Positions 10,386 to 51,395 of a stretch of DNA of 64,000 nucleotides are shown one piece after another. Made by a program: the position numbers and the translations under genes. The stretch spans positions 186,001 through 250,000 of the forward strand of contig RBZT01000125.1 of assembly GCA_003693705.1 (NCBI GenBank), written 5' to 3'. The first letter of the stretch is position 1, and each line of letters begins with the position of its first letter. Source of the stretch: Polymyxa betae A26-41 (lineage: Eukaryota; Protista; Endomyxa: Phytomyxea). The notes beneath the pieces are model-generated. The model saw nothing but the letters and a program-made list of their open reading frames with translations. It was not told the origin of the DNA and searched no databases.

Positions 10386-12738
10386 TCATTTAGCAGCAGG
10401 TTTTGCGCGTTTACTGAGAAGCTTCTCTAGAGTCTTCATCGCCTTCGTGACTGATTCTTCCATCGCATCTAACCTAGCATTCAGGTTGCTTTTATCACCG
10501 TCAGCTGGTTTAACTCCTGTTAATCTTGAAAACACCTCAGGAGCCATCTAATTACCATTTAGCAACAAATTCAACCTGCTCAATGGCGAGACTGTTACCG
10601 TTTGTGTATTCACTATACTCAGATTGGTTGATGGCCTCGTTTTCCTCGCTTTCAGCAAAGACGACAGATCCCTTTCTGCCTTGTCCAGCAAAATCTTCGT
10701 GGCACCTTCGTAATTGCCCACCAGTCTATGTGAACATTAGACGTCTAGTGTAGTTCTGTGTACGCCGCCCGCTTTACCTGAACATGGATTGTGTGGCAAC
10801 TCGCAAGAGGACGGTTTCTCCAGTACTCCTTAGGCTATACGGCCAGATGTTCGTCAAAAACATTCCGATTTCTCCTAGAGATGTTCCATTAACGTAGGTC
10901 TGATAAACTATGTTGGCATTGCTTGACGACACAGCTGCAATACTGCCTGTAATGATCAAGTACCTATGAGACTGTTAAAATTTCCTGCCAGAATCCAGCC
11001 TTTGTGCTGCTACCAATAGTCTGTTGGGTATCCATAGGTTGCCACATATTGGCCAGGCCGAACTCGGATTGTCTCGCCTGCAGCTAGGACGTCAACCTTG
11101 GCGTCCTCATTGCTTAGCAGTTGAAGGAATGATGACGTTTCTAACGTCTGTAGGCGGAGATGTGAACATGACATGAACGCTGATTTCGTGACCGACATAC
11201 CGATTTATAGATGGTCTGAATAACCTCTGTCCTTAAAGATTTGCTCATATCACTCATCAATGGAGCCCAATCCATTCTGACTTGGCGGTCCTGTCTATAG
11301 AACGCCCCCATCTCCCGAACCACACAGGCTTGCAATTTCGGTGGCAAGCGCTTATCGCTGATCAAAGTGCTGACCTTGTGCATGTTCTCGCGATAAAGAG
11401 CGCTTTGGCTGTCAGCCGCTTGTAGAAGGGAACTAGCAGGCCCATGTCATTCATTGAACGATTTGGAGAAATGACCAGAGAAGCCCAAAACCCTAACCTG
11501 ACTGTAGCTGTAACATAGGAGAATACAGTAGCCCCTGTTGTCATAACAATAATACTCGCCAACATTTCTAAAGAGCTCTTAGCATGGATGTCTCCATACC
11601 CGACTGTTGTTAACGTCTGCCATCCCCAATCTAGATAATTGTTAATCATACCATGGATGCAGTTTGGAGCCTTCGTCTTACATAGCGAAGCAAGATACTG
11701 GTATTCTAAGGAGGTGTCGCTGATGCCGACGTTCCACGCTTGCTGGATCCAGGAGCCTTCACCTGAAAGCGAGCCGACTTTGTGCCATAAACAAGCGCTG
11801 AAGTGGCCGATAACAAGCATAGTGACGATCAGCTTTAGACAACGAACTGCACCCTGATGCACAAGCGGGCTGTATTCAAGATCGTAGAACAATTTCTGGA
11901 ATCGCCTTGTCCTCATAAGCTTTGCCAAGCGCAGCAAGCGAAATGTAAGACGAGGGATCTTCATAGTTTTACCAATTGCTGCAAATGTTGAGACATTGGA
12001 ATCAGGCAACACGGCTGTATAAGGAAATGACGACAGAAAATCAATAACCATCCAGCCCTTCGCATACGCAATCGCAATCTGTTTTAGGTCGGTTACGATT
12101 TCACCGTTGGGGCCATCGATAGCAGTAAAGAAAGTCATGACAAAATCGATCATGAACGAGATATCGACGATCATATCCAGTGGTCCATTATAATCAGTAT
12201 GGATATCGAATGCTTCCCGAACAGGTAATACACAGACAGTGTAGCCCAACAGAACGACCAAGAATAGCTCCCAAAAGCGTTTGAGAGGGTTATCTGGCAT
12301 CAAAATATACCATGGGGATTCTCTGAGCAGCTTCTTCTCCTCAACGGCCACTCTCAACGCCTCCGTGAATGTGTTCATGATTGTTTCGGCGGTGAAGTCG
12401 TCATTTCTTTTCTCTTCGACTTGCTTTTTTCCTTCTTGTAAAGCCAGCTGTCTGAATTTGCTCATAACCGGGGTGAGTTCAGACGAAGCCGTTGCTTCTG
12501 GGGGCTTTGCTGTTGCAGTGATGTTAGGCAGAGGGCGCTCGAGAGTTTCATCACTCGTAAAACTTTCGGTGACTTTTACAGCACTTTCGACAAGCTTATC
12601 GAACGATGTTCCGAGACTGCTTTGGCGCTCTCTCGTAGCATTCGATGTTGGATCAAGGGACGATAATTTTAGAGGCTTTGGGTTAGCGGCCGTTGTAACT
12701 TCATTCTGTTCATTGACGATTATAGCACCAGCCCACAT
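10386..12738 (-). CDS. Voltage-gated K+ channel with cyclic-nucleotide-binding homology domain (EAG/HCN/CNG superfamily), paralog 1
   Basis: S1-S6 segments, IAxAYAKGWMVIDFLSSFPY, S4 RLTFRLLRLAKLMR, pore TLTTVGYGD, C-linker and CNBD (PGQYVATYG, SLGEIG). Confidence 0.93.
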
Positions 12739-12817
12739 TGCTGGTAGATCATCGGTAGTGCGACAGTACCCGAGAAAAATCTATGCACTTTCATTGTATA
12801 TTTATTGTAAATATCTA

Positions 12818-15064
12818 TCAAATGTTAGCTATTGAAGACAGTGTCTCAATCTGCCCAGAAAGATGATCAACCATCGATTGCAACCGAGTTATTCTTTCAG
12901 GCACACTGGCATCGGGTGCTTTAACAGGTTCTTGATTAGCATTGCTTGCAGACAAAAATGACTGCGATAATGTTGATTTTAACTCGGACTCTTCGAGTGA
13001 TAAGTCAGATAATCCAGCATTCAGATTGGCTGTGCTTCGATATCGATTCAGTTGTGTCGAAGGGGAAGCACTTGACAATGTTGAGCGACTATTTCCCCCT
13101 TGTGGACTATCGGAGGGGGATCCCGATCCCGAATCGACGTTCTTTTTAGCTAAACACAGTTTAGCATAATCCGTTGTAGCTAAATCGATAAGTAACGACG
13201 TGATCCTGCATTCGTGCATAAATTCGCGAACAACTGACCGTCGCATTAGAACTCACCCCTCATAACTTCCAGCTATGCGTAAGAGCTTCTGTATCGGCAA
13301 TCGAAGTACAACAGCGGCATATATGCAACGAATGCTGGCGAACCACGTTGTAGTTAAGAATATACAAGATTCGCCAAGACTTTGCCCAACGCTGTATTTT
13401 CTATACACCACATTTGAATTGCCGGAAGACACAGCAGCCAGCACGCCTCGTCGGACAAAATACCTAACAACTCATGAGTGCCACCAGCCAGGAATTGTAA
13501 TCAGTTGATGTCTCTCACCACGAATCACATAGAAACCCAGCTGTTGCTAAATATTGACCTGGCTGTAAATAAATCTCTTCGCACGATGCGAACAGTTCGG
13601 TATGAAACCCAGGATCGTTGACATGCCGGATAAATGGGGATACCTTGATAACATCCTTCATTGTGTGTGCTATAACATCCTTCTGTAACTTCGGAGACAT
13701 GTCTTCCATTAATGAAGCCCAATTATGCGAATGAGATACAGCCTTCCGATAATACGAGCCGACCTCACGAATAACTCGTACTTGAAGCCGAGACGGTAAT
13801 TGCTTTTCGTTCAGGAAAAGCGAAACTTTGTGCATACGTGACCGATATTCACTGCTTGTTCCGTCTGATGACTGAACGATACTGCTAACCGTTGCAGTTA
13901 TATATGAGAACATTGTGGCACCTAACAAATAATTAGCCGTTTAGCATAGTTAGTAGCAAGCAACCTAATGTCATAATGATCATGGAGAAAATCAGCTCTG
14001 CTGGCGATCGCCCAACAATATCACCATATCCAACAGTAGTCAACGTTTGCGTTGCCCAATCTATTTAGCATTTAGAGGCTTATCACAATAATCAGATGGT
14101 TCTTACAAAGTGACATGCAATACAGGTAACCAATCGAAGCACCATTAAGATTGTCTTGATCGATCATATCAAGCCATGATCCATTGCCTCGATTGAGATC
14201 GCCAACCTTATACCACAAACATGCACTAAAATGCACGATGGCAACAATCAGCATTACAACTTTCAGCACTCGAACAGCGCCTTGATGAACAAGAGGGCTA
14301 AATTCCAGCTCGTAGAAGAACTTCCTGAATCGATACGCTCTGAAAAGTTTTAACATGCGAAGTGCTCGAAATATCATTCTTGGGATTTTCAGACTCTTTC
14401 CAAGAGCTGTCAGGAAAGACACTTGAACATATGAAAAATTGGGAATCAAAGCGAATGGAAACGACGACAACGCATCGATCCAGAACCAGCCTGTCAGATA
14501 GGTTTTCGCAATCAATTTTGGGTCAGTAACTAAATCTCCCCATTCATCTTCATAAGCCAAGAAAAACGTGATACAAACATCGGCAATGAACAGGATATCG
14601 ATGATTAGGTCCAAGGTCGTGTACGACCCATCAGTATCGAATACTTCTCGAATAGGCAGAAAGATCAAAGTATAAAGGAGCAGCAACGAAAGAATTAGCT
14701 CCCAAATTCGTCGACCCATATTGTTTGGCATCAGAATATACCATGGATATCTTTTCTTTGAGACACCTTCTTCTAAAGCTGCTTGTAAGGCTTCTGTAAA
14801 CGTATAGATCATACGATCTTCGGAATTCTCCAGCTGCTTCTTCCTGACCTCTTCTTTCCCGATTCGGCCAGCTATATCTTTGAATCGTCGCGCGGCTGGA
14901 CCAAGAGGGGTGGCATTAGCTAATTTTGAGGACTCATCGGTGGCAGAAGCCAAATCTGATGCGGTCGATTCAACAGAGTTCGAAGTGTTCGACGTTGTCG
15001 TTCTATGTGTCGGCTTCTTCTTCAATGTCGCATCTGGTATTATACCCCATGCATGCTTAACCAT
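12818..15064 (-). CDS. Voltage-gated K+ channel with CNBD, paralog 2 (tandem duplicate)
   Basis: PWYILMP, YLTGWFWIDALSSFPF, RALRMLKLFRAYRF, TLTTVGYGDI (about 14020-14050), PGQYLATAG, SLGES. Collinear with paralog 1. Confidence 0.93.
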
Positions 15065-15139
15065 CCTTTCGCCTAGGCTTGATGCCGTACCAATGCATAC
15101 AGATATTTGAGGAGATATTTTCAGCTGATAAGCGAACCG

Positions 15140-15449
15140 TCCATAATATCATTGGTGTCATGTGACAAGCTTCCAGCAGGCGATACGCATAACGCTATCT
15201 CCCTAATCCCAAATACATAAAACAATGCAGACGAAGGTGGGTGTTAACAATAGATGGAAGTTAGGCCTAGGCGGTAGCAATGTTCCATGAATCCATAATA
15301 TCATCGGTGAAAGGAGACAAGCTTTCCTTGCATAAAGCAGGCGATACACATCATAACGCTATCTCCTTAATGCATAAAGCAATGGAGACGAAGGTGGGTG
15401 TTAACAATAGGCGGAAGTTAGGCCTAGGTGGTAACAAAGTGCCATGAAA
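15140..15449. repeat. Diverged ~150-bp tandem duplication (2 copies) upstream of channel paralog 2
   Basis: tccataatatcat...gcaggcgatac...cataacgctatctcc...gacgaaggtgggtgttaacaatag...gaagttaggcctagg...ccatgaa occurs at about 15140-15291 and 15292-15449. Confidence 0.9.
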
Positions 15450-36115: not shown

Positions 36116-38223
36116 TCAACTCAATTGTTTTATGTGCAAAATCTTACCATTTCGATTGGGTAAAAAGATGGGAGGTGTCTTGAATGGTGCTGGCGTCGGA
36201 GTCTGTCGAGCTGGCGTCGGAGTCTGTCGAGCTGCAGACGAGACAGACGACAGTTTCGAAGGCAGTCGACTCCCAACACTGCTGACAGATGGCGGTAATA
36301 CCAGCCCACAGACGTCCGTCGTGATATTCAGGTACCTTTGCAACGACCGTGTTGACGTTTGCGATTTCGGGATGTAGACTTGCAGCGGGCCATTCCTGGA
36401 TAATGCCGCCCGGGTCTGGTTCGTATCCAGCATTGGCCGTTTCGGATGCGGAATCGGATCTCCGACACAGAGTTTACGAACGGCACTGCTGCGCTGACAC
36501 AAGATCGTGTGATTGGTCAGATAAGCGAAGGCGCAATTGGCATCGTATGAATAACGTCCTGAATGGACATTAAACCCGCTCAAGGTTGGGCTGTCCATGG
36601 CGCCTATACCGAACCAGGTCAACCTAGATTCCACGTTTAGCTTGTCCCAGAGCGCACGGTCCTCCGGGTCGTACTGGAAATGGACATGCGGCCCGCTCCA
36701 CGATCCTCCTTCACATAGCGCGTCGGTGATGGTTGCTGCCACGTTCGACAGCTTCTGTCCAGTTAGGACTTGATCGCCGACCTTTACGATAGGATTGACG
36801 ATATGCTGTTCAGGGATTCAGTCATCGGTCATTTATGATCGTGCTCGTACATAGTAGAGGGTCTTCCATCCATACCCGTGATCGATTTCAACTCTGCATT
36901 TCGAGACCGACGAGACGGTTCCTGGCGCTGAGAAACAATTTCACATTTAGACAGCGCCCAAGAACTGCTTCCTGACCGGCGGCGACCACCGTCCATGTAA
37001 GGGGAGACGATCTCCTGAAATCAGATCGGCTGAAATCTAACGCCGTATAATGCATGTTGATAGGACTCGACTGCACGATCTGCTGCGTCGATAACGACAG
37101 CGCCAGAGCCTCATTTGAGGCGGCGAACATATCGCCTCGACCATGAGCGCTGCCTCCGATCGTCCACGTCTCACCTTCTGGGTACCTAGGCAGACGTTGA
37201 CCACGAATAGAACACTTCTAACGTTAATCAATACGGTAGGTGAAAAACATCCGGCGGAGGTCGAAGACAATCGGTTGTGCAGGACGACGTTGCTGTTATG
37301 ATTTGCTGATCATAGACTCGTCCTCGGTATCTGACACGATATAAGCTGGGTCCAGCACCTCCATTTCCTATCAACGACCCGATCTGTGCGTATGTTCAGC
37401 GATTTGGCTTTGATAATCCAGATGGTAACGCTCACATCACGCCCAGCGCTGAAAAACCCGTTGAATCGCTTGGTTAAGGTCGTCAATGAGGTGATATTTG
37501 TGGTTGAACCTGAATCCAGATTGACCAGTTCGATATTGATTGGTGCACCAGGCTGATATCCTGACATTTCCGGGTATCAGATCATAAGATTGACGATGAT
37601 GGATTCAGATTCGCACCTTGGAAAGAGCAGCAGATCGTCAGATAGCCTTCAGAGAGCTGATTGATGTTCAGAACCGAGATGGAGTTGATGGCGCCTTGTG
37701 GCTGGCTACAATCGGCATTCGCTCCGGGCAGGACCGATAGAGCCGCTGCAAATGGCGGCCCTGAGACTTTGACAGATGCGGTTCCTTGAAGAACAGAATT
37801 CAGATAAATGGATGCCTTGAAGGCGTCGTTGTCGGATGTCAGAAGCGTCCATATATACATCGAAGAATACGATAGCTTGTAGCATGCTACGACAATGTAA
37901 GAAGTTGTCTTTGCGCTCCAGATGAAAATATTGGTGAAGATACCTGAAGACGGCAAATTGGATGTTTTCAGAGCAGTTTGAAAATCGCCTCCAGAGCTAG
38001 TCCCAACTCGCAGCTCGAGAGTGCCAGATGTGTATCCTTGCCATGCGAACAGAATGAAGATTTTACCATCAGAAGAAGCAGGAAGACTTGATGAAGATGG
38101 TGTTATTGAGCAGTCCCAACCCAATGGAACCGTTGATGTTAGCGAAATTCCTGATAAAGTAAATGCTTCTGACACAGACAAAATCACAGAAAGTTGCAAA
38201 ATAAATCCAATTAAAGGATACAT
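36116..38223 (-). CDS. Secreted M23A (LasA/beta-lytic-like) zinc metallopeptidase, paralog A; 3' end uncertain
   Basis: Signal peptide (..ILSVSEA|FTL). Spliced core GGSAHG...HYTALDF...WTVVAAAPGTVSSVSKCRVEIDHGYGWKTLYYHIVNPIVKVGDQVLTGQKL...DALCEGGSWSGPHVHFQ...GRYSYDANC. Confidence 0.88.
36189..36234. repeat. 21-bp perfect tandem repeat encoding ARQTPTP x2 in the paralog A tail
   Basis: gctggcgtcggagtctgtcga appears twice. Confidence 0.9.
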
Positions 38224-38421
38224 TCTTAAGAGTCAACGTCGTCAGAACAATAGATATTGAACTGGTAGATATTCATGGCGCCATAAAAATCTGGTATGAA
38301 ATGAGGACGTTAAAATCGATCCAGGACAAAAATCAGGGACAGCATGAAACGACTCAATGGCTACCTAGAATTAGACATGTATCCTGGAATTTGCAAAGCC
38401 AACAGACCAATGTATTCGATA

Positions 38422-40999
38422 TCAGAAATCGAAAATACATAATGACAATAAGACGCAGATATACACAACAACTAGATCGCTGGCTTTCAGTGCTGAAGAG
38501 GTCGTAGATTTCGAATCATGAGTAACGTTTGATTGGACGTTGCTAGTTCGGAGGCCAGCAGCTCCACCAGCAACTGAGCTTTGAACAGTAGACTTTCGAA
38601 CAGTTCCAGCTTGCGCATTTAACGACGATCTTGCCGTGGAGAGCAACCTAGCTCCTGAAGTAGATGTAAGCGAGCTCTTGATGCTTGGCAAGTTCGATGA
38701 GGACATGCTGCTGCTCGGTGTTGAAGACTGAATCGACATCGAGGATGAGCCTGAAACAACAGCACTTGGCCTATTCGGAAGCTACTTGAATTAACAGTCA
38801 CCGAAATAAACGGATAACGTACTTAGCAGTCGCAATACCATTGCCGTTTGTTGATGTAGGCGCAGGAGTAGGTCCCGGGTTTCCCTACATCAGAAGTCAA
38901 AATCAACACATAAAAATTGTCATATAAACGCACGCCGGCACCACCACCACCACCACCACCACCACCACCACCGCCGCCAGGCGAAGGTCGAGCACTCGAA
39001 GTAGGAGCTGACGACAACTTTGATATCGGTACTGGATAGATAATTGGTGCGGTAGTGCTGTTTCTCAAGCAACCATCGGATGATAGGTTCAGATATCGTT
39101 GCGGTCGATTGACGACAATAGAATCGGTATCCGGCACGACATAAACCCTCAACCCGCCGTTTTTTGACAGTGCTCGGCGCGTCGCATTCACGTCACGATA
39201 TGTTGCACGATTATGGAGCAGTCCCTTGCCAACACAGGTTTTTGGCACCACAGATAGTTGGCGAACGCAAGTATCAGTATAATTGGTGACATACGCATAT
39301 AAGCAATCATTATCATACGAATAACGACCTCCATGGATTATATAATCAGAGAGCGTAGTACCATCTACAGCTCCAATTCCGAACCATGTTAGTCTACGAA
39401 TCAACAATCAGATTCGCAAAAATTTAGACCAAGTACACAATACTGAAAATGGAGGTGAGGCCCGCCCCAAGCCCCGCCTTCACACAGAGCATCTGATTTC
39501 AATAAAGCTGCAGCAGCCAGCTTCTGACCGGTTCTAACGTAGTCACCGACTTTCACGACCGGATTGATTAGATGCTAAATTCAGTGTTCAAATATCATAA
39601 CGTTGAAGGGGCAGATATCGTACATAGTATAATGTTCTCCACCCATGCCCATGATCAATTTCAACTTTGCATTTGGAGACGGTAATAACCTGACCGGCGG
39701 CTATATGTACGGTTAAGAAGAATCTAGTTCATCTAACCAAACGGGGCATACCAGATGCAGTAATAGACCAGTTTAAGGGTGAAAAATTCCGGGTGGGGTT
39801 GTTGAAATCCAAAGAGGTATAATGCAGATTTGATGGTGTAGCCTGGACGATTTCCTGCGTGGACGGTAGCAGCGCCAAAGTCTCGTTGGAAGCAGCAAAC
39901 ATATCACCACGACCATGTGGACTGCCACCTAATACCCAACGTTCCCCTTCCGGGAATCTACACAGGAAATTAGCGTCAATAGATCAGCCAACGGCTGCAA
40001 GCATACGGCAACGCGAAAACGTCAACAGGTGGGCGCAGGCAATCGGTTTGACAGTTCGTGTCAAAAACTATTTCCTGCCCGAGATATTCGGTGTCACGGT
40101 AACGAGCCTTGAGTCTGCTTGAACCAACGCCAGCCAAGCCCAATAAGTACCCGGCCTATTCTAGTTCTGAGCACAGAACAAACAAAACAAGATCAATGAA
40201 CCGACCTCACGATAGGCACTAAACCAGCCACTAAACCGCATCTTCAAAGGATTCAGTGTCGTTATGACACTGCTATAACCGCTTTCGCCATTCTCGATTT
40301 CGACACTGACCGATGACCCGGGCTGATAACCTAAATAAGGCCTGAGCATTTCCAGCGTCTCTGAAGGCAAAACCGACCGACCCTTCATGATGCAACAAAC
40401 GGTGACCATTTGTTCGGAAATCTCGTTGATGGTTATGGGCGTGGCTCCCGGGTTTAAGCTATTCTTTGAGGATGGATCACAGGTCTGAGAGCTGCCGTAG
40501 ACCAAGATCGTTTTGACTGAAAACGGGTATTTGACATAGGCAGATGCAGATCCGACCAAGGTCGAGTCAAGATACACGGCGACCTTCAGCTGATCTTGAT
40601 CGGATTGTAGCATGGTCCAGATTGCCGTTGATGAGTAAAAGACTTTAAAGCATCCTAGCATTGAATTAGTCGAGGATATTTGATTAGTATGGGAGAGCTA
40701 CCTGATGAGGCAACACCGGGAACCGTGGTAGGAGTAAGCAGCTGCAATGTGTTATTCGACGATGTTCGAATTTGCAGCGTCCCGGATGTGTATCCAGTCC
40801 AAGCAATCAGAACGTAGGCCCGGCCGGTCGTTGAAGCATCAATAGTAGATAATGAACTCGGCAGAGTGCAATCCCAAATACTGGGAGCTGAGTCACTTAA
40901 AGAGATACCTTCTAAAGTGAAGGCAGATTCTGCTGTCAATGACAACAGATGCCATACTGCCAGGTTTAGAACAAAGCGAATCCCGCTCTGCATTGCCAT
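38422..40999 (-). CDS. Secreted, probably GPI-anchored M23A (LasA-like) metallopeptidase, paralog B
   Basis: Signal peptide (..LTAESA|FTL). Core GGSPHG...HYTSLDF...AGQVITVSKCKVEIDHGHGWRTLYYHLINPVVKVGD...DALCEGGAWGGPHLHFQ...GRYSYDNDC, then Gly13, a Ser/Thr stalk and a hydrophobic C-terminus (VVVYICVLLSLCIFDF). Confidence 0.88.
38940..38978 (-). repeat. (GGT)11(GGC)2 trinucleotide tract encoding 13 glycines
   Basis: acc repeats on the + strand, in frame within paralog B. Confidence 0.95.
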
Positions 41000-46883: not shown

Positions 46884-47095
46884 GCCCAAACAATTCTGTC
46901 TATTTGATCCGAAATTAAAACTCGAGGCATTTCCGATTACCTAACTTATGGTCATGAATCGATTGATACCTCAGAAAATTCTTGACGTCTTTGGGATTCC
47001 GCGGATTTTGCGTCCGGAGTCCGAATTAGACCACTGGAAATCTACGAAAATGTTCCTGACCAAAATCATCAGATAGTTTGATAAAGTTTGTTACC

Positions 47096-48011
47096 ATGGA
47101 TGAAGACACTCAATGGATTGTGGAAGAGATCGAAAACGAATCTGGCGTTGCGCCAGCATTTGTTGCTGACCAGGATTCCGATGTAGAATCCGGGCCTCAA
47201 GCCGAGTCCAAAAGCGTCGCCCCGAAGGCGAAAAATGCAAAGAAAAGGGATCGCCTTGAAAAACTGAAAGCTGCATCTAAACGCCATAGACAAGAGAAGC
47301 ATAACCGAAACCCCATGCATGGTGTCGAGTTGCTTGGTGCTGACCAGCAAGCGGCTGCGTTCCAATCACTTCTGAACAACACCAGCAGTTTGGAACAAAT
47401 CGAGGCCAGCGATTTCGTAGACCTCTCATCTGAGAAACAGCAACATGATATCGCCGCTCTCCCCAAAACTATCAAGTCCATTCAGGCGAACTGGAAAGAG
47501 AAACTGCTGGGCAAACGGAATCCTGGTGGTTTGGTATTACTATTTCTGACCTATTCAGCTGCACGGGCTGTTCAGATTATCAAGTAATCGAAAATTTTGC
47601 AGATGTTTTTCTTGCAGCTGATCTTCTGTCCGTAGGGTCCTTCGACAGTTCCAAACGAACAAATTGCCGATCGCTAAGTTGTTCGCTAAGCATCTAAAGA
47701 TCGAAGAACAGATTGAGGTTCTGGAAGGCGACGTTCGCATCGCCGTTGGAACGCCTAATCGGTTGTTGAAGCTTTTCGATGCTGGAGCTTTATCATCGGC
47801 TCAATTAGAGCATGTTGTTATTGACATGGGGCTCGTAAGTTGCAACTGATTGGTGTTCAACTTGATCATTTAATCATGCCTTCAGGATGCCAAAAACTTT
47901 AATTTGTTTGATATCGACGCCATTCGTTCCGATTTCTTGACCTTGTTTACCAAGTACTTGGCAAGTAGTATGAAGTCGCAAAAAGGCAAATTACGACTCT
48001 GTTTATACTAA
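47096..48011 (+). CDS. CMS1: CMS1 / CMSS1 ribosomal small-subunit biogenesis protein (DEAD-like fold)
   Basis: SAARAVQII, IAKLFAKHLKIEEQI, IAVGTPNRLLKL, VVIDM..DAKNFNLFDI. Confidence 0.9.
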
Positions 48012-48067: not shown

Positions 48068-48701
48068 TTACGTTTTGATATACATGAAGCCTGCAACGGC
48101 AAAGATGACGGCGAGTGTGCCGAGAACAGCTAACAGCGTCGAGTCCAATGGCGAGACCACATTCCCTCCTCTAATTACTCCCCCATTGGGTCCTGGTACT
48201 TCCGATATCCCTTTTTCATCTAATTGAAAGGGAGCGCCTTCATCAATCCACGCTTTAACTTCGGACAGATTAACTTTGGTTAATGTGTCGTTAACAGGCA
48301 TTCGCATCCCAACCTAAACAGCAACCTATTAACGAACTTCTGAATTACTTCTGCCATCAAATTGTTCGTACTAGCTTAGGGCCACCCTTAAGCTTCACCC
48401 AAAGGAAACTATGTTTATGATCGCCTGGAACTACCAGCTTCATCGATGGATTGAGCTTCGATTGGACATTGACCAAATGGTTATAGGCGTTGTTAGCATT
48501 CGTTAAGAATAGAGGGCAGCCACGGGTCGTCTCGTTTTGATGCAAAGAGGCATTCAAATACTGTGACAGCAGAGGCCAAATGTCTTGAGAAAACGTCAAC
48601 TTTCGAGTTCGTATAACAACATAATCGTCGTCGGGATCCTGTGAATATGTACAAGCGACCTGACAGATTAATATGATACCAAGAAAGATATCAGGTCGCA
48701 T
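48068..48701 (-). CDS. Single-pass membrane protein with planctomycete-type cytochrome c-like domain lacking CxxCH cysteines
   Basis: Signal peptide; LTFSQDIWPLL...LVVPGDHKHSFLWVKLKG...GMRMP...EVKAWIDEGA; C-terminal TM LLAVLGTLAVIFAVAGFMYI. One GT-AG intron. Confidence 0.72.
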
Positions 48702-49009: not shown

Positions 49010-50267
49010 ATGGTTTGGGTAAGGACCGGACAGGCCTATCGAAGTCTGCAGCGACGCTTGTCGTCGCTGACCGTCACGGCCGATGATCTTTCCTGCATTA
49101 CGGCCGTGTCCAAAAGCTCCAACGTCGTAGGTTGCATATAGGTAGACGTTCGACTTTGATCATGATGCTGTTAGTCAATTGATACGATTCGGTCGAAAAC
49201 GGGCTTTATAATTGATAGTATGGCTGAAATTTCTTATGTCTTGTGATACCAATGACGAAATTGCAGTGGATGGTGTTATATGTAAGAGTGTGAATGATAC
49301 CTTTCAATGTCCTCAGCGTACCACGACTCAGATCATGGCAAATCTTTATTAAAAGGCGCATCTGAGTTTGTTAAATTTCTTCAAGACAACAACAAGAAGT
49401 TTTTGTTTTTGACCAACGCAAGCGAACGATCGCCAAAAGAATTGCAAGAGAAACTGAGGCGAATGGGGATTCAGGTAATGCTGCATACCATGAAAGAAAT
49501 CTGCCAAATGACGTGATCTAGGTCGAAGAGACACATTTCTATACTTCTGCATTAGCAACGGCCAGTTTCATGAAGAAGTCATCACCACATGGTGGTTCTG
49601 CATATGTCATTGGAGAACCCGGTTTAATATCAGGTGAGAAAGAGCTCTGAGCAAGAAGAGAAGTTATTCAAATTGTATACAGCTCTCTATAATGCTGGAT
49701 TCACAATGAACGACCATAATCCTGAATGGGTAGTTGTCGGAGAGACCCGAAACTACAGCTATGAGAAGATTGAGCATGCTGTGCATTTAGTCAGGAATGG
49801 CGCTCGTCTTCTGGGGACCAACTGTGACACCAAAGACCGATTAGGGTCATCTTTTATCCCTGGATGCGGCGCTCTAATTAAACCAATTGAGATGGTGGCC
49901 GAAGTCGATGCCTACTTTGTCGGGAAACCGAATCCAATGGTACCCATCGCTTATCTGAACAAGTTGCTTCTGTTATAAACATTTCGGTCAAGATCATGCG
50001 AACAGCACTCCAGCAGCTTGGAGTCAAGAGATCGGAAACCGTGGTTATAGGAGACCGAATGGACACAGGCAATGTTTTATTGTTTAAACGGTTTATGCAC
50101 TAATTATTGCTTGCACAGATATACTTGGTGGGCTTCAAGCAGATATCACAACAACACTTGTATTAACTGGTGTTACCAAATGTTCTGACCTGAAAAGGTT
50201 TGCATATCGTCCTGATGTCATATCACCTTCAATAGGGCATATCGTTCCTGGTCTGTACAAAGACTGA
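49010..50267 (+). CDS. nagD: HAD-superfamily IIA hydrolase, NagD-like nucleotidase; start approximate, presequence-like N-terminus
   Basis: Spliced GFIIDMDGVIYHG, FLTNASERSP, FYTSALATA, GKPNP, VIGDRMDTDI, LVLTGVT, YRPD. Confidence 0.92.
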
Positions 50268-50301: not shown

Positions 50302-51048
50302 TTAATATTCGAGAAAGGGTTCGACAGGGAATACCCGCTCTCCATCTAGATCTATTTTCACTGGATTTCTATAAAACACGTCGAGATAATTGTCTATGGG
50401 AAACAACGTCGTCAAACGCGCATAGAATGATATCAGCTCGGAGCTTGGAATGCTGCTCATGACCTCCCGTTTCTGAGAGTCGAGAAATTCGCTGCATTTT
50501 GTCTTGTTCATGCCTTGTAACGCCGCCCCCAATACAAGCAAATGTTTAACAGATTCGAATGCTGTCTGAGCCAGGTTTTCAGACGAGAAGTCATTTTGTT
50601 CTGCTTTGGGAACTCTCTTCATGCGCACATCCCAAATAGGAAACATCCGTTCGACATCTTCAACCGATGTCAGCACTCTATCAGAGCTCATGAAATGACC
50701 CGTCGAGTTGCGATTTGACAATCCTTGCAAGTAATCGATCAAGCTGTCGAACGTGCCTTCGATAACCGTTATGAATGCCGTCTTGTTAATAATGAACGTC
50801 AGGCCAGTAAGTTTGCCCTCAACTTTGCTCTTGTTTTCGGAAATGGCATTGACAAAAGCTTGAACATCGTTGGTTGAGGTCAATTCTCCAACCAGTACCA
50901 TGCGATTAACCCGGTTCGCATTCTGAGTCCGTATGCCTTCCTGTACGATATCTAACAGACTCAAACGCTTCGAATCGTTGCTGGTTAAAATCGGACTCGC
51001 TTCGCCATTCTGGATAGAATCATTGGCATTACCCGGATCATTTGACAT
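50302..51048 (-). CDS. TEX47: TEX47-like (C7orf62 family, BLUF-like fold) protein, intronless
   Basis: RMVLVG..LTGLTFII..FITVIEG..RVL..VEDVERMFPIW and C-terminal YLDVFY..PVKIDLDGERVFP resemble the family as recalled. Confidence 0.65.
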   Translation of the reverse strand: MSNDPGNANDSIQNGEASPILTSNDSKRLSLLDIVQEGIRTQNANRVNRMVLVGELTSTNDVQAFVNAISENKSKVEGKLTGLTFIINKTAFITVIEGTFDSLIDYLQGLSNRNSTGHFMSSDRVLTSVEDVERMFPIWDVRMKRVPKAEQNDFSSENLAQTAFESVKHLLVLGAALQGMNKTKCSEFLDSQKREVMSSIPSSELISFYARLTTLFPIDNYLDVFYRNPVKIDLDGERVFPVEPFLEY

Positions 51049-51395
51049 TGTAGATTGGTCTGTAACTGACAGTGCCTACCTTGATGCTGCAAAACACCTT
51101 TACCGCTTACCGCGACGATCTTGTATACCTTTTCACTTTATCACATAACCAGCAAACATCAAATCAACGGTTAAATTCTGTAAGCGTAAGTGAAGCTAGA
51201 CGATAACAAATAAAGAAGATTTATACAGCATGTAGTTTGAAGATGTGAGAATAAAAGTGATGATAGGAATGGAGAGACGAGGCCGCTGCAACCACGTTGT
51301 GCCTTGCCTCTCTGTTTCTTCTTTGTTGGTCCTATGTAGGATATCTGACTCGCACTTTATTTGAGTCCTTCCGTTATCTTGTCTATATCGATAAT

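Follow-up and report, generated by a model that had tools for sequence, protein, structure and literature searches.

The closest described relatives of the protein analysed here are exported, membrane-tethered class I cytochrome c domains of bacteria, represented by the Pfam family PF07635 (PSCyt1) and by lipoproteins of Myxococcota and Acidobacteriota, which share an F..D(I/V).P helix, a His, a (V)xPG...S.L..K stretch, an xMP motif and a WI..GA end. The PVC-type context of PSCyt1 is described with DUF1501, PSD1 and PSCyt2 as partners (PMC3542564). Two further comparisons come from the PDB: FoxE, a periplasmic diheme cytochrome c (5MAB/5MVO) of the same domain family, whose two c hemes are covalent and whose Met ligands cross from one half to the other, and the heme alpha-II domain of hydrazine synthase alpha (5C2V), which is part of a large enzyme and holds a covalent CxxCH, bis-His heme. 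Covalent heme attachment requires a dedicated apparatus, and in a laboratory mutant of the Hydrogenobacter thermophilus cytochrome c552 (C10A/C13A, i.e., AxxAH) the class I fold forms around heme b without thioether bonds, at a potential 75 mV lower and with reduced stability (PMC4451467). In nature, a cytochrome c fold that lacks heme c is found in the N-terminal domain of qNOR, a heme-free part of a membrane enzyme (PMC5826923). Functional analogues are AIR12 and the DOMON domains of CYBDOM proteins and of cellobiose dehydrogenase, which are secretory, membrane-tethered and carry a His/Met b heme, modelled for HYP1 and with EPR cited for AIR12 (PMC10784544).

The gene considered here was found in a window of 64,000 nucleotides (the whole stretch of DNA that was analysed), and its product shares the listed hallmarks with the PF07635 relatives. 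In contrast to them, it has no CxnCH motif and hence would carry no covalent heme, and a eukaryotic signal peptide, a C-terminal helix, an intron and sequons stand in place of a lipobox. It is a Cys-less variant of the PF07635-type domain, neither a c-type cytochrome nor a formal member of PF07635. FoxE has two heme domains, whereas the query has one and no Cys motif; from the hydrazine synthase domain it differs in all the features named above. Unlike the engineered c552, it belongs to a natural, diverged family (26–58% identity among seven representatives) for which heme binding is predicted, and unlike the heme-free qNOR domain, this family keeps both ligand columns. No description of a Cys-less cytochrome family of this kind was present in the literature searched, a search that had most subscription journals outside it.

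A spliced gene and its predicted surface protein

The gene runs on the minus strand from the ATG at 48701 to the end of the stop codon at 48068 and encodes 191 aa. Exon 1 (48372..48701, minus strand; residues 1–110) lies within the spliced contigs and is followed by a phase 0 GT-AG intron of 58 nt (48314..48371, minus strand) and by exon 2 (48068..48313, minus strand; residues 111–191 plus the stop). The 58-nt intron is skipped in contigs from three of four sequencing runs (X3, X4, and X12, representing three studies), the splice joints being read from runs of unrecorded kind, and the gene is unspliced in the fourth, a probable DNA run. The gene holds two in-frame GT-AG intron candidates (58 and 85 nt), of which the second was rejected because the contigs skip only the first. 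This agrees with the first-pass annotation, which had proposed one intron and a eukaryotic gene structure. The contigs also show splicing of the flanking genes, whose introns measure about 50 nt, and the gene is therefore a eukaryotic nuclear one. In the plasmodiophorid P. brassicae the mean intron length is 60 bp (PMC4471660), and our guess is that the short introns and dense genes of the window are compatible with a plasmodiophorid. One run carries an N56T allele. Three small-share runs contributed no contig over the gene and X8 a partial one, which yielded no variation from a sister species. One spliced contig extends to 48845 and takes in two upstream out-of-frame ATGs (48784 and 48768, minus strand), the latter starting a frame of 25 codons overlapping the main start; strand and start site are not given by the contigs.

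On the plus strand, a CMS1-like gene (47060–48011; Pfam E 0.0028) ends 57 nt from the stop of the Cys-less gene, and an intron-rich gene at about 49010–50267 is HAD/NagD-like (by eye), followed on the minus strand by a TEX47-like gene (50302–51075; Pfam E 5.8e-14). No functional link between these three neighbours and the Cys-less gene was seen, and none of the PVC-type partners occurs at the locus. Elsewhere in the window, two tandem paralogous ORF pairs are located on the minus strand (36116–36817 with 38823–39407, and 37582–38232 with 40161–40697), one with an HVHF motif (by eye), which we take to recall M23 peptidases, and the other opening with a signal-like stretch. Two tandem potassium channel genes, cyclic-nucleotide-gated or KCNH-like (by eye, GYGD filter), occupy 11362–15148 of the minus strand.

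The 191-aa product comprises a predicted signal peptide, a domain of about 103 aa and a C-terminal membrane helix, and the same whole architecture is found in two full-length orthologues, P0015 (214 aa; matched to the spliced query at E 1.1e-23) and P0039 (215 aa), which we infer to be of eukaryotic origin. The predicted signal peptide (about residues 1–20; 48642..48701, minus strand; cleavage site not computed) has its hydropathy peak at residues 5–15, and an N-terminal peak occurs in both orthologues. A juxtamembrane RGGN(V/I)V motif (48140..48172, minus strand), common to all three proteins, precedes the predicted transmembrane helix (about residues 170–189; 48077..48136, minus strand; hydropathy 2.36 over 171–189), after which only a 2-residue tail remains. 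The first-pass annotation had likewise read a signal peptide and a C-terminal TM, and also several N-x-S/T sequons, of which we count four (N50, N56, N118, and N125; 48269..48554, minus strand); these flank the two candidate heme ligands, His54 and Met115, and are not shared by the orthologues. A GPI anchor was considered less likely than a transmembrane helix, since both orthologues continue beyond the helix into basic C-terminal tails. As none of the three full-length proteins ends in a KKxx/KxKxx retrieval signal, the cell surface is favoured over the ER, and the query is predicted to be a single-pass cell-surface protein; of the surface or ER location proposed earlier, the predicted secretory topology is retained and the surface preferred.

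Homology to bacterial cytochrome c domains

The Cys-less class I cytochrome c-like domain covers residues 35–137 (48233..48599, minus strand) and spans the intron; it was assigned by profile homology and by the fold of an orthologue. Exon 1 alone (residues 28–110) was compared by phmmer with 1.84 billion representative sequences and gave 31 matches at E ≤ 0.001, of which 13 reach the PF07635 cut-off, five are without the Cys motif and two (P0008 and P0030) were set aside as repeat artefacts. Exon 2, which was outside this query, carries two further hallmarks of this family, xMP and WI..GA. On a profile built from 64 two-Cys domains only, the spliced protein scored 77.7 bits, and the 14 Cys-less domains all fell between 50 and 80 bits, whereas 1000 shuffles (601 of which scored at all) reached no more than 4.7 bits and the reversed sequence 0.0; as the two-Cys comparison domains were gathered using exon 1, the fully independent check is the one provided by exon 2. 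The motifs quoted in the first-pass annotation are all present, and the homology to cytochrome c domains that it proposed is well supported by these scores. Profile similarity to known cytochromes c, on which it had staked that proposal, was found for both structures introduced above: the top match of a Cys-less-only profile among three PDB rows up to E 10 was the hydrazine synthase heme alpha-II domain (E 0.0037), and the wider, 31-sequence profile matched 5C2V at 6.7e-9 and FoxE at 7.2e-5. Judged by its sequence, the query domain is truly homologous to the class I cytochrome c domains that bacteria export.

Each exon searched singly gave no match to Pfam, NCBIfam or PDB sequences, a word-based protein search with exon 1 yielded no candidate, and the leads from Atlas searches, some of them PF07635, were all below 0.9. 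A Pfam PSCyt1 search, proposed earlier as a check, turned out negative, as neither exon scanned singly matches PF07635 (gathering cut-off 22 bits); among the orthologues, P0039 reaches 16 bits against this cut-off and P0015 has no match. The description of the domain as planctomycete-type therefore survives only as a Pfam label, since PF07635 is not matched and the named relatives are Myxococcota and Acidobacteriota, while its cytochrome c part holds. The missing direct matches to Pfam and NCBIfam and the Atlas scores below 0.9 are also what one could bring forward for a contaminant, a decaying pseudogene or a chance likeness, but the gene is spliced in three studies and surrounded by intron-bearing eukaryotic genes, its frame is intact, two full-length orthologues have the same architecture, and the profile score is far above that of the shuffles. 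Splicing, orthologues and profile score largely refute this explanation, which we consider hardly credible.

For the structural comparison, the ectodomain of the orthologue P0015 was modelled with AF2 as a proxy for the query, using an alignment that included two-Cys homologues. The model is helical (pLDDT 78.8, pTM 0.74). Foldseek ranked 5C2V first (E 0.022, probability 0.96), with no row at E ≤ 0.001, and its low-scoring viral spike rows were dismissed as noise. VIA-align superposed the model on 5C2V with Z 6.8 and rmsd 3.9 over 111 aligned residues, and on 5MAB with Z 5.3. Of the 14 rows that a wide structure search gave at Z ≥ 2, eight were cytochromes c, among them the seven highest; the best Z of 4.9 is under the level at which the tool regards a score as meaningful alone. 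The fold of the model is consistent with the sequence homology evidence. A two-Cys control (P0021) taken through the same procedure and set against the two PDB entries used with VIA-align reached Z 8.7 and 8.5, and the lower values of the Cys-less model may mean that the pocket is changed or collapsed.

The Cys-less family, its ligand columns and its origin

Conservation was compared column by column between 14 distinct Cys-less domains and 85 other domains (21 of them from locus scans), leaving out 12 weak or short domain matches, four duplicates and two fragments. Since a single Paulinella species accounts for ten of the 14 as paralogues, the independent Cys-less count is nearer seven. Both Cys are present in 84/85 comparison domains (85/85 and 84/85 for the single columns) and in 0/14 Cys-less domains, and among the 13 columns that are at least 85% conserved in the comparison set, only these two drop to zero. 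His, Pro, Ser, Lys, Pro, and Ile are kept in 14/14, Met and Trp in 13/14 and one Ser in 12/14. The heme-packing Leu column has Leu in 7/14 and Met or Phe in the rest, and the conserved Gly column has Gly in 3/14, with Cys in its place in Paulinella. His is one of 12 invariant columns out of 95 among the seven representatives, and a Pro-to-His distance of 11 residues occurs in 13/14 Cys-less vs. 1/85 comparison domains.

In the query, the columns of the lost heme-attaching Cys are occupied by Leu49 and Leu53 (48543..48557, minus strand), and the proximal heme-ligand column by His54 (48540..48542, minus strand), where His is found in all 14 Cys-less and all 85 comparison domains. Met115 of the RMP motif (48299..48301, minus strand) stands at the distal heme-ligand column (Met in 84 of the 85 comparison domains) and aligns with the RMP Mets of FoxE. 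The earlier claims that both Cys were dropped and that the His and the RMP Met were kept thus extend from the query to the family, with the one exception at the Met column described below. Cys62 (48516..48518, minus strand) is the sole Cys of the mature ectodomain and is unconserved, the orthologue domains being without Cys. The assignment of the Met column draws on the modelled ligand sets of Rhodoferax FoxE, Cys37-Cys40-His41-Met208 and Met94-Cys147-Cys150-His151 (PMC10654088): a constant offset of 54 maps Cys147, Met94, and Met208 to residues 201, 148, and 262 of the 5MAB sequence, so that, by residue-offset arithmetic and not by structural measurement, 148 and 262 are both RMP Mets aligned to the family's xMP column. 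This column is not always a ligand, as hydrazine synthase has Phe there and a bis-His heme, and the Met may be kept for structure, given that other, non-ligand hallmarks of the sequence are equally conserved.

The same residues could also form a metal site without porphyrin, with Cu(I) or an ion like it held by the His and Met and by their His and Met neighbours. Cu(I) is typically liganded by sets of this kind, the query has additional His75, His95, His97, Met87, and Met113, and a second His precedes the Met in all ten Paulinella domains. The extra His are not found family-wide, however, the P0015 domain having a single His, and the hydrophobic heme-packing columns are retained; we therefore regard such a site as very improbable.

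Non-canonical heme motifs abound in the bacterial-type family (P0005–P0044 and L001–L026), with 33 Cx4CH, six Cx1CH, and one Cx6CH vs. 44 Cx2CH among the 85 domains. One presumed bacterial lipoprotein of the family (L020:80-457) has a single Cys before the His, the Pro-to-His spacing of 11 seen in Cys-less domains and a Paulinella-like loop; the tree places it apart from them. Either a cytochrome with a single thioether or an error in the sequence could account for it.

The first-pass annotation had seen a domesticated bacterial gene, a view that we refine to membership in a small Cys-less family, to which belong two full-length orthologues, a single fragment and the repeats of three proteins from Paulinella micropora. 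These three are gene models with seven (P0003), two (P0004) and two (P0013) Cys-less copies, placed on long Thr-rich stalks together with trypsin-like, EGF, and fibronectin-II domains or a multi-pass membrane region. P0003 (3575 aa) begins with a signal peptide and carries its seven domains ahead of 11 hydrophobic segments (2138–2714) with weak likeness to a high-affinity choline transporter or sodium-solute symporter (E 0.74), and it is possibly a gene-model fusion. In the ten distinct Paulinella domains the conserved PG is changed to PC and a further Cys follows the last helix, from which a new disulfide is likely and could replace the lost thioether stability; the loop ahead of the Met holds the second His in all ten. 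The fragment (P0023; 161 aa on a 504-nt contig) has Lys where the Met is expected and a degraded last helix, and a piece resembling a chitin-recognition repeat (E 0.079) precedes its domain; this protein may itself be incomplete. A search for longer proteins found one two-Cys protein, which is weak evidence. Locus scans, which used two to six short peptide patterns each and do not show absence, found no P0015 locus in JGI metagenomes, none in viral contigs and no fully Cys-less one among 25 metagenomic loci; in GTDB, they found one locus, a two-Cys one in Acidobacteriota.

The relatives that carry a name, Nannocystis pusilla, a Myxococcales bacterium, and an Acidobacteriota MAG, include no planctomycetes, and most of the other two-Cys relatives are presumed to be bacterial; a lipobox-like motif (loose pattern) is present in 19 of 30 comparison proteins. 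Trees of about 110 columns always give two Cys-less groups, that of the query and that of Paulinella. Their union is unstable: it appears in 34% of bootstrap trees with 78 rows and is not rejected (AU p 0.386), receives 98/80 with 90 rows (nine near-duplicates omitted) and falls to 6% when the Cys-bearing columns are removed, a setting in which the bootstrap had not settled and in which both groups and four two-Cys domains share a 96/93 branch. One transfer and two transfers from the same bacterial neighbourhood are both compatible with these unrooted trees, and the bacteria-to-eukaryote direction is taken from the distribution of the family. The loop is 15 residues long in Paulinella vs. 12 in the query group, which raises the idea of separate donors; the trees fit either way. 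Acquisition of the gene by horizontal transfer from bacteria is likely, in line with the bacterial origin first proposed. In Rhizaria, prokaryote-derived genes are 2.6-fold enriched for extracellular location (10.1101/2023.01.27.525846); the main text of this preprint contains neither "cytochrome" nor "heme", and its supplements could list the family.

Heme binding and possible roles

Our preferred reading, held tentatively and drawn from the conserved columns, is that the query may bind heme b non-covalently through His54 and Met115 and relay single electrons to a partner in the membrane or outside the cell. To our knowledge, eukaryotes attach c heme in mitochondria and plastids only, and this does not occur in the secretory pathway. 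The donor was very probably a lipoprotein of the cell surface that carried a Cx1-4CH heme c. Since the apparatus for c heme would be missing from the secretory pathway, the free Cys would have been lost upon entry into it, and the lipid anchor would have given way to the C-terminal helix. The His/Met pair would then, with somewhat better than even prospects, still clamp heme b. A six-coordinate heme, a 2-residue cytosolic tail and the lack of a catalytic or signalling part would suit a protein that passes electrons and not heme, a step that is more likely than not once heme b is bound. The Cys-less protein would in this way work like AIR12 and other DOMON-type proteins, but on a cytochrome c fold. 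DOMON domains are beta-sandwiches unrelated to cytochrome c; Pfam scans of the query and its relatives gave no DOMON match, and the P0015 model is helical. No redox partner was identified for the query. Against ligation by Met stands the Lys at this position in P0023, and against a relay the spacing of the Paulinella stalk copies, which are too far apart for a wire and would better suit a binding module. The sequons on either side of His54 and Met115 also count against our reading.

These last observations also bear on a heme-free vestige, in which the cytochrome c fold would persist as an extracellular scaffold or ligand-binding module. The qNOR domain is a precedent for a cytochrome c fold that has dispensed with heme c (PMC5826923). 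The Paulinella copies are repeated on mucin-like stalks beside EGF, trypsin-like, and fibronectin-II domains, the Cys-less model falls below the two-Cys control in structural score, and the Met is lost in P0023. Yet the His is present in 14/14 domains and keeps its spacing amid neighbours that change freely, and a polar, iron-ligating residue would be expected to have drifted once Cys and heme were gone. We hold a heme-free family to be less likely than our preferred reading, but it is the foremost alternative and a serious one.

The scavenger idea of the first-pass annotation corresponds to a role in heme capture or trafficking, where extracellular heme would be bound non-covalently and handed over to an importer. 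Non-covalent binding permits release, P0003 joins its seven copies to the 11-segment membrane domain (a lead only, given the weak symporter likeness), and the spliced gene was found in runs labelled as other organisms, which would fit a host-associated life. On the other hand, slow exchange of heme is what a closed His/Met pocket in a cytochrome c fold suits, the amoeba P. micropora lives freely and by photosynthesis, and no heme transporter was identified adjoining the gene. Provided that heme b is bound, an electron relay is likelier than scavenging, given a pocket that would be closed and a tail unable to signal; capture as such appears quite unlikely.

Returning to the relay of electrons by a His/Met-bound heme b, its extension to the whole family has about an even chance of being correct. 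It would describe class I cytochromes c that were taken up once or twice and turned in nature into heme-b redox modules on protist surfaces, having shed their Cys because the secretory pathway cannot ligate the heme, and that stand alone on a membrane anchor or are repeated in proteases and transporter-like proteins. Why cytochromes c bind heme covalently is a long-standing question, and a natural family that lacks the Cys and has the ligands offers a direct test, i.e., whether heme is bound, at what potential, and what replaces the stability of the thioether bonds. If heme-free, the family would be an unusual vestigial domain. If the heme-b reading is true, the cytochrome c fold would be added to the short list of extracellular heme modules known from eukaryotes, and the family would illustrate how a gene, once transferred, is adapted to a compartment without its maturation system.
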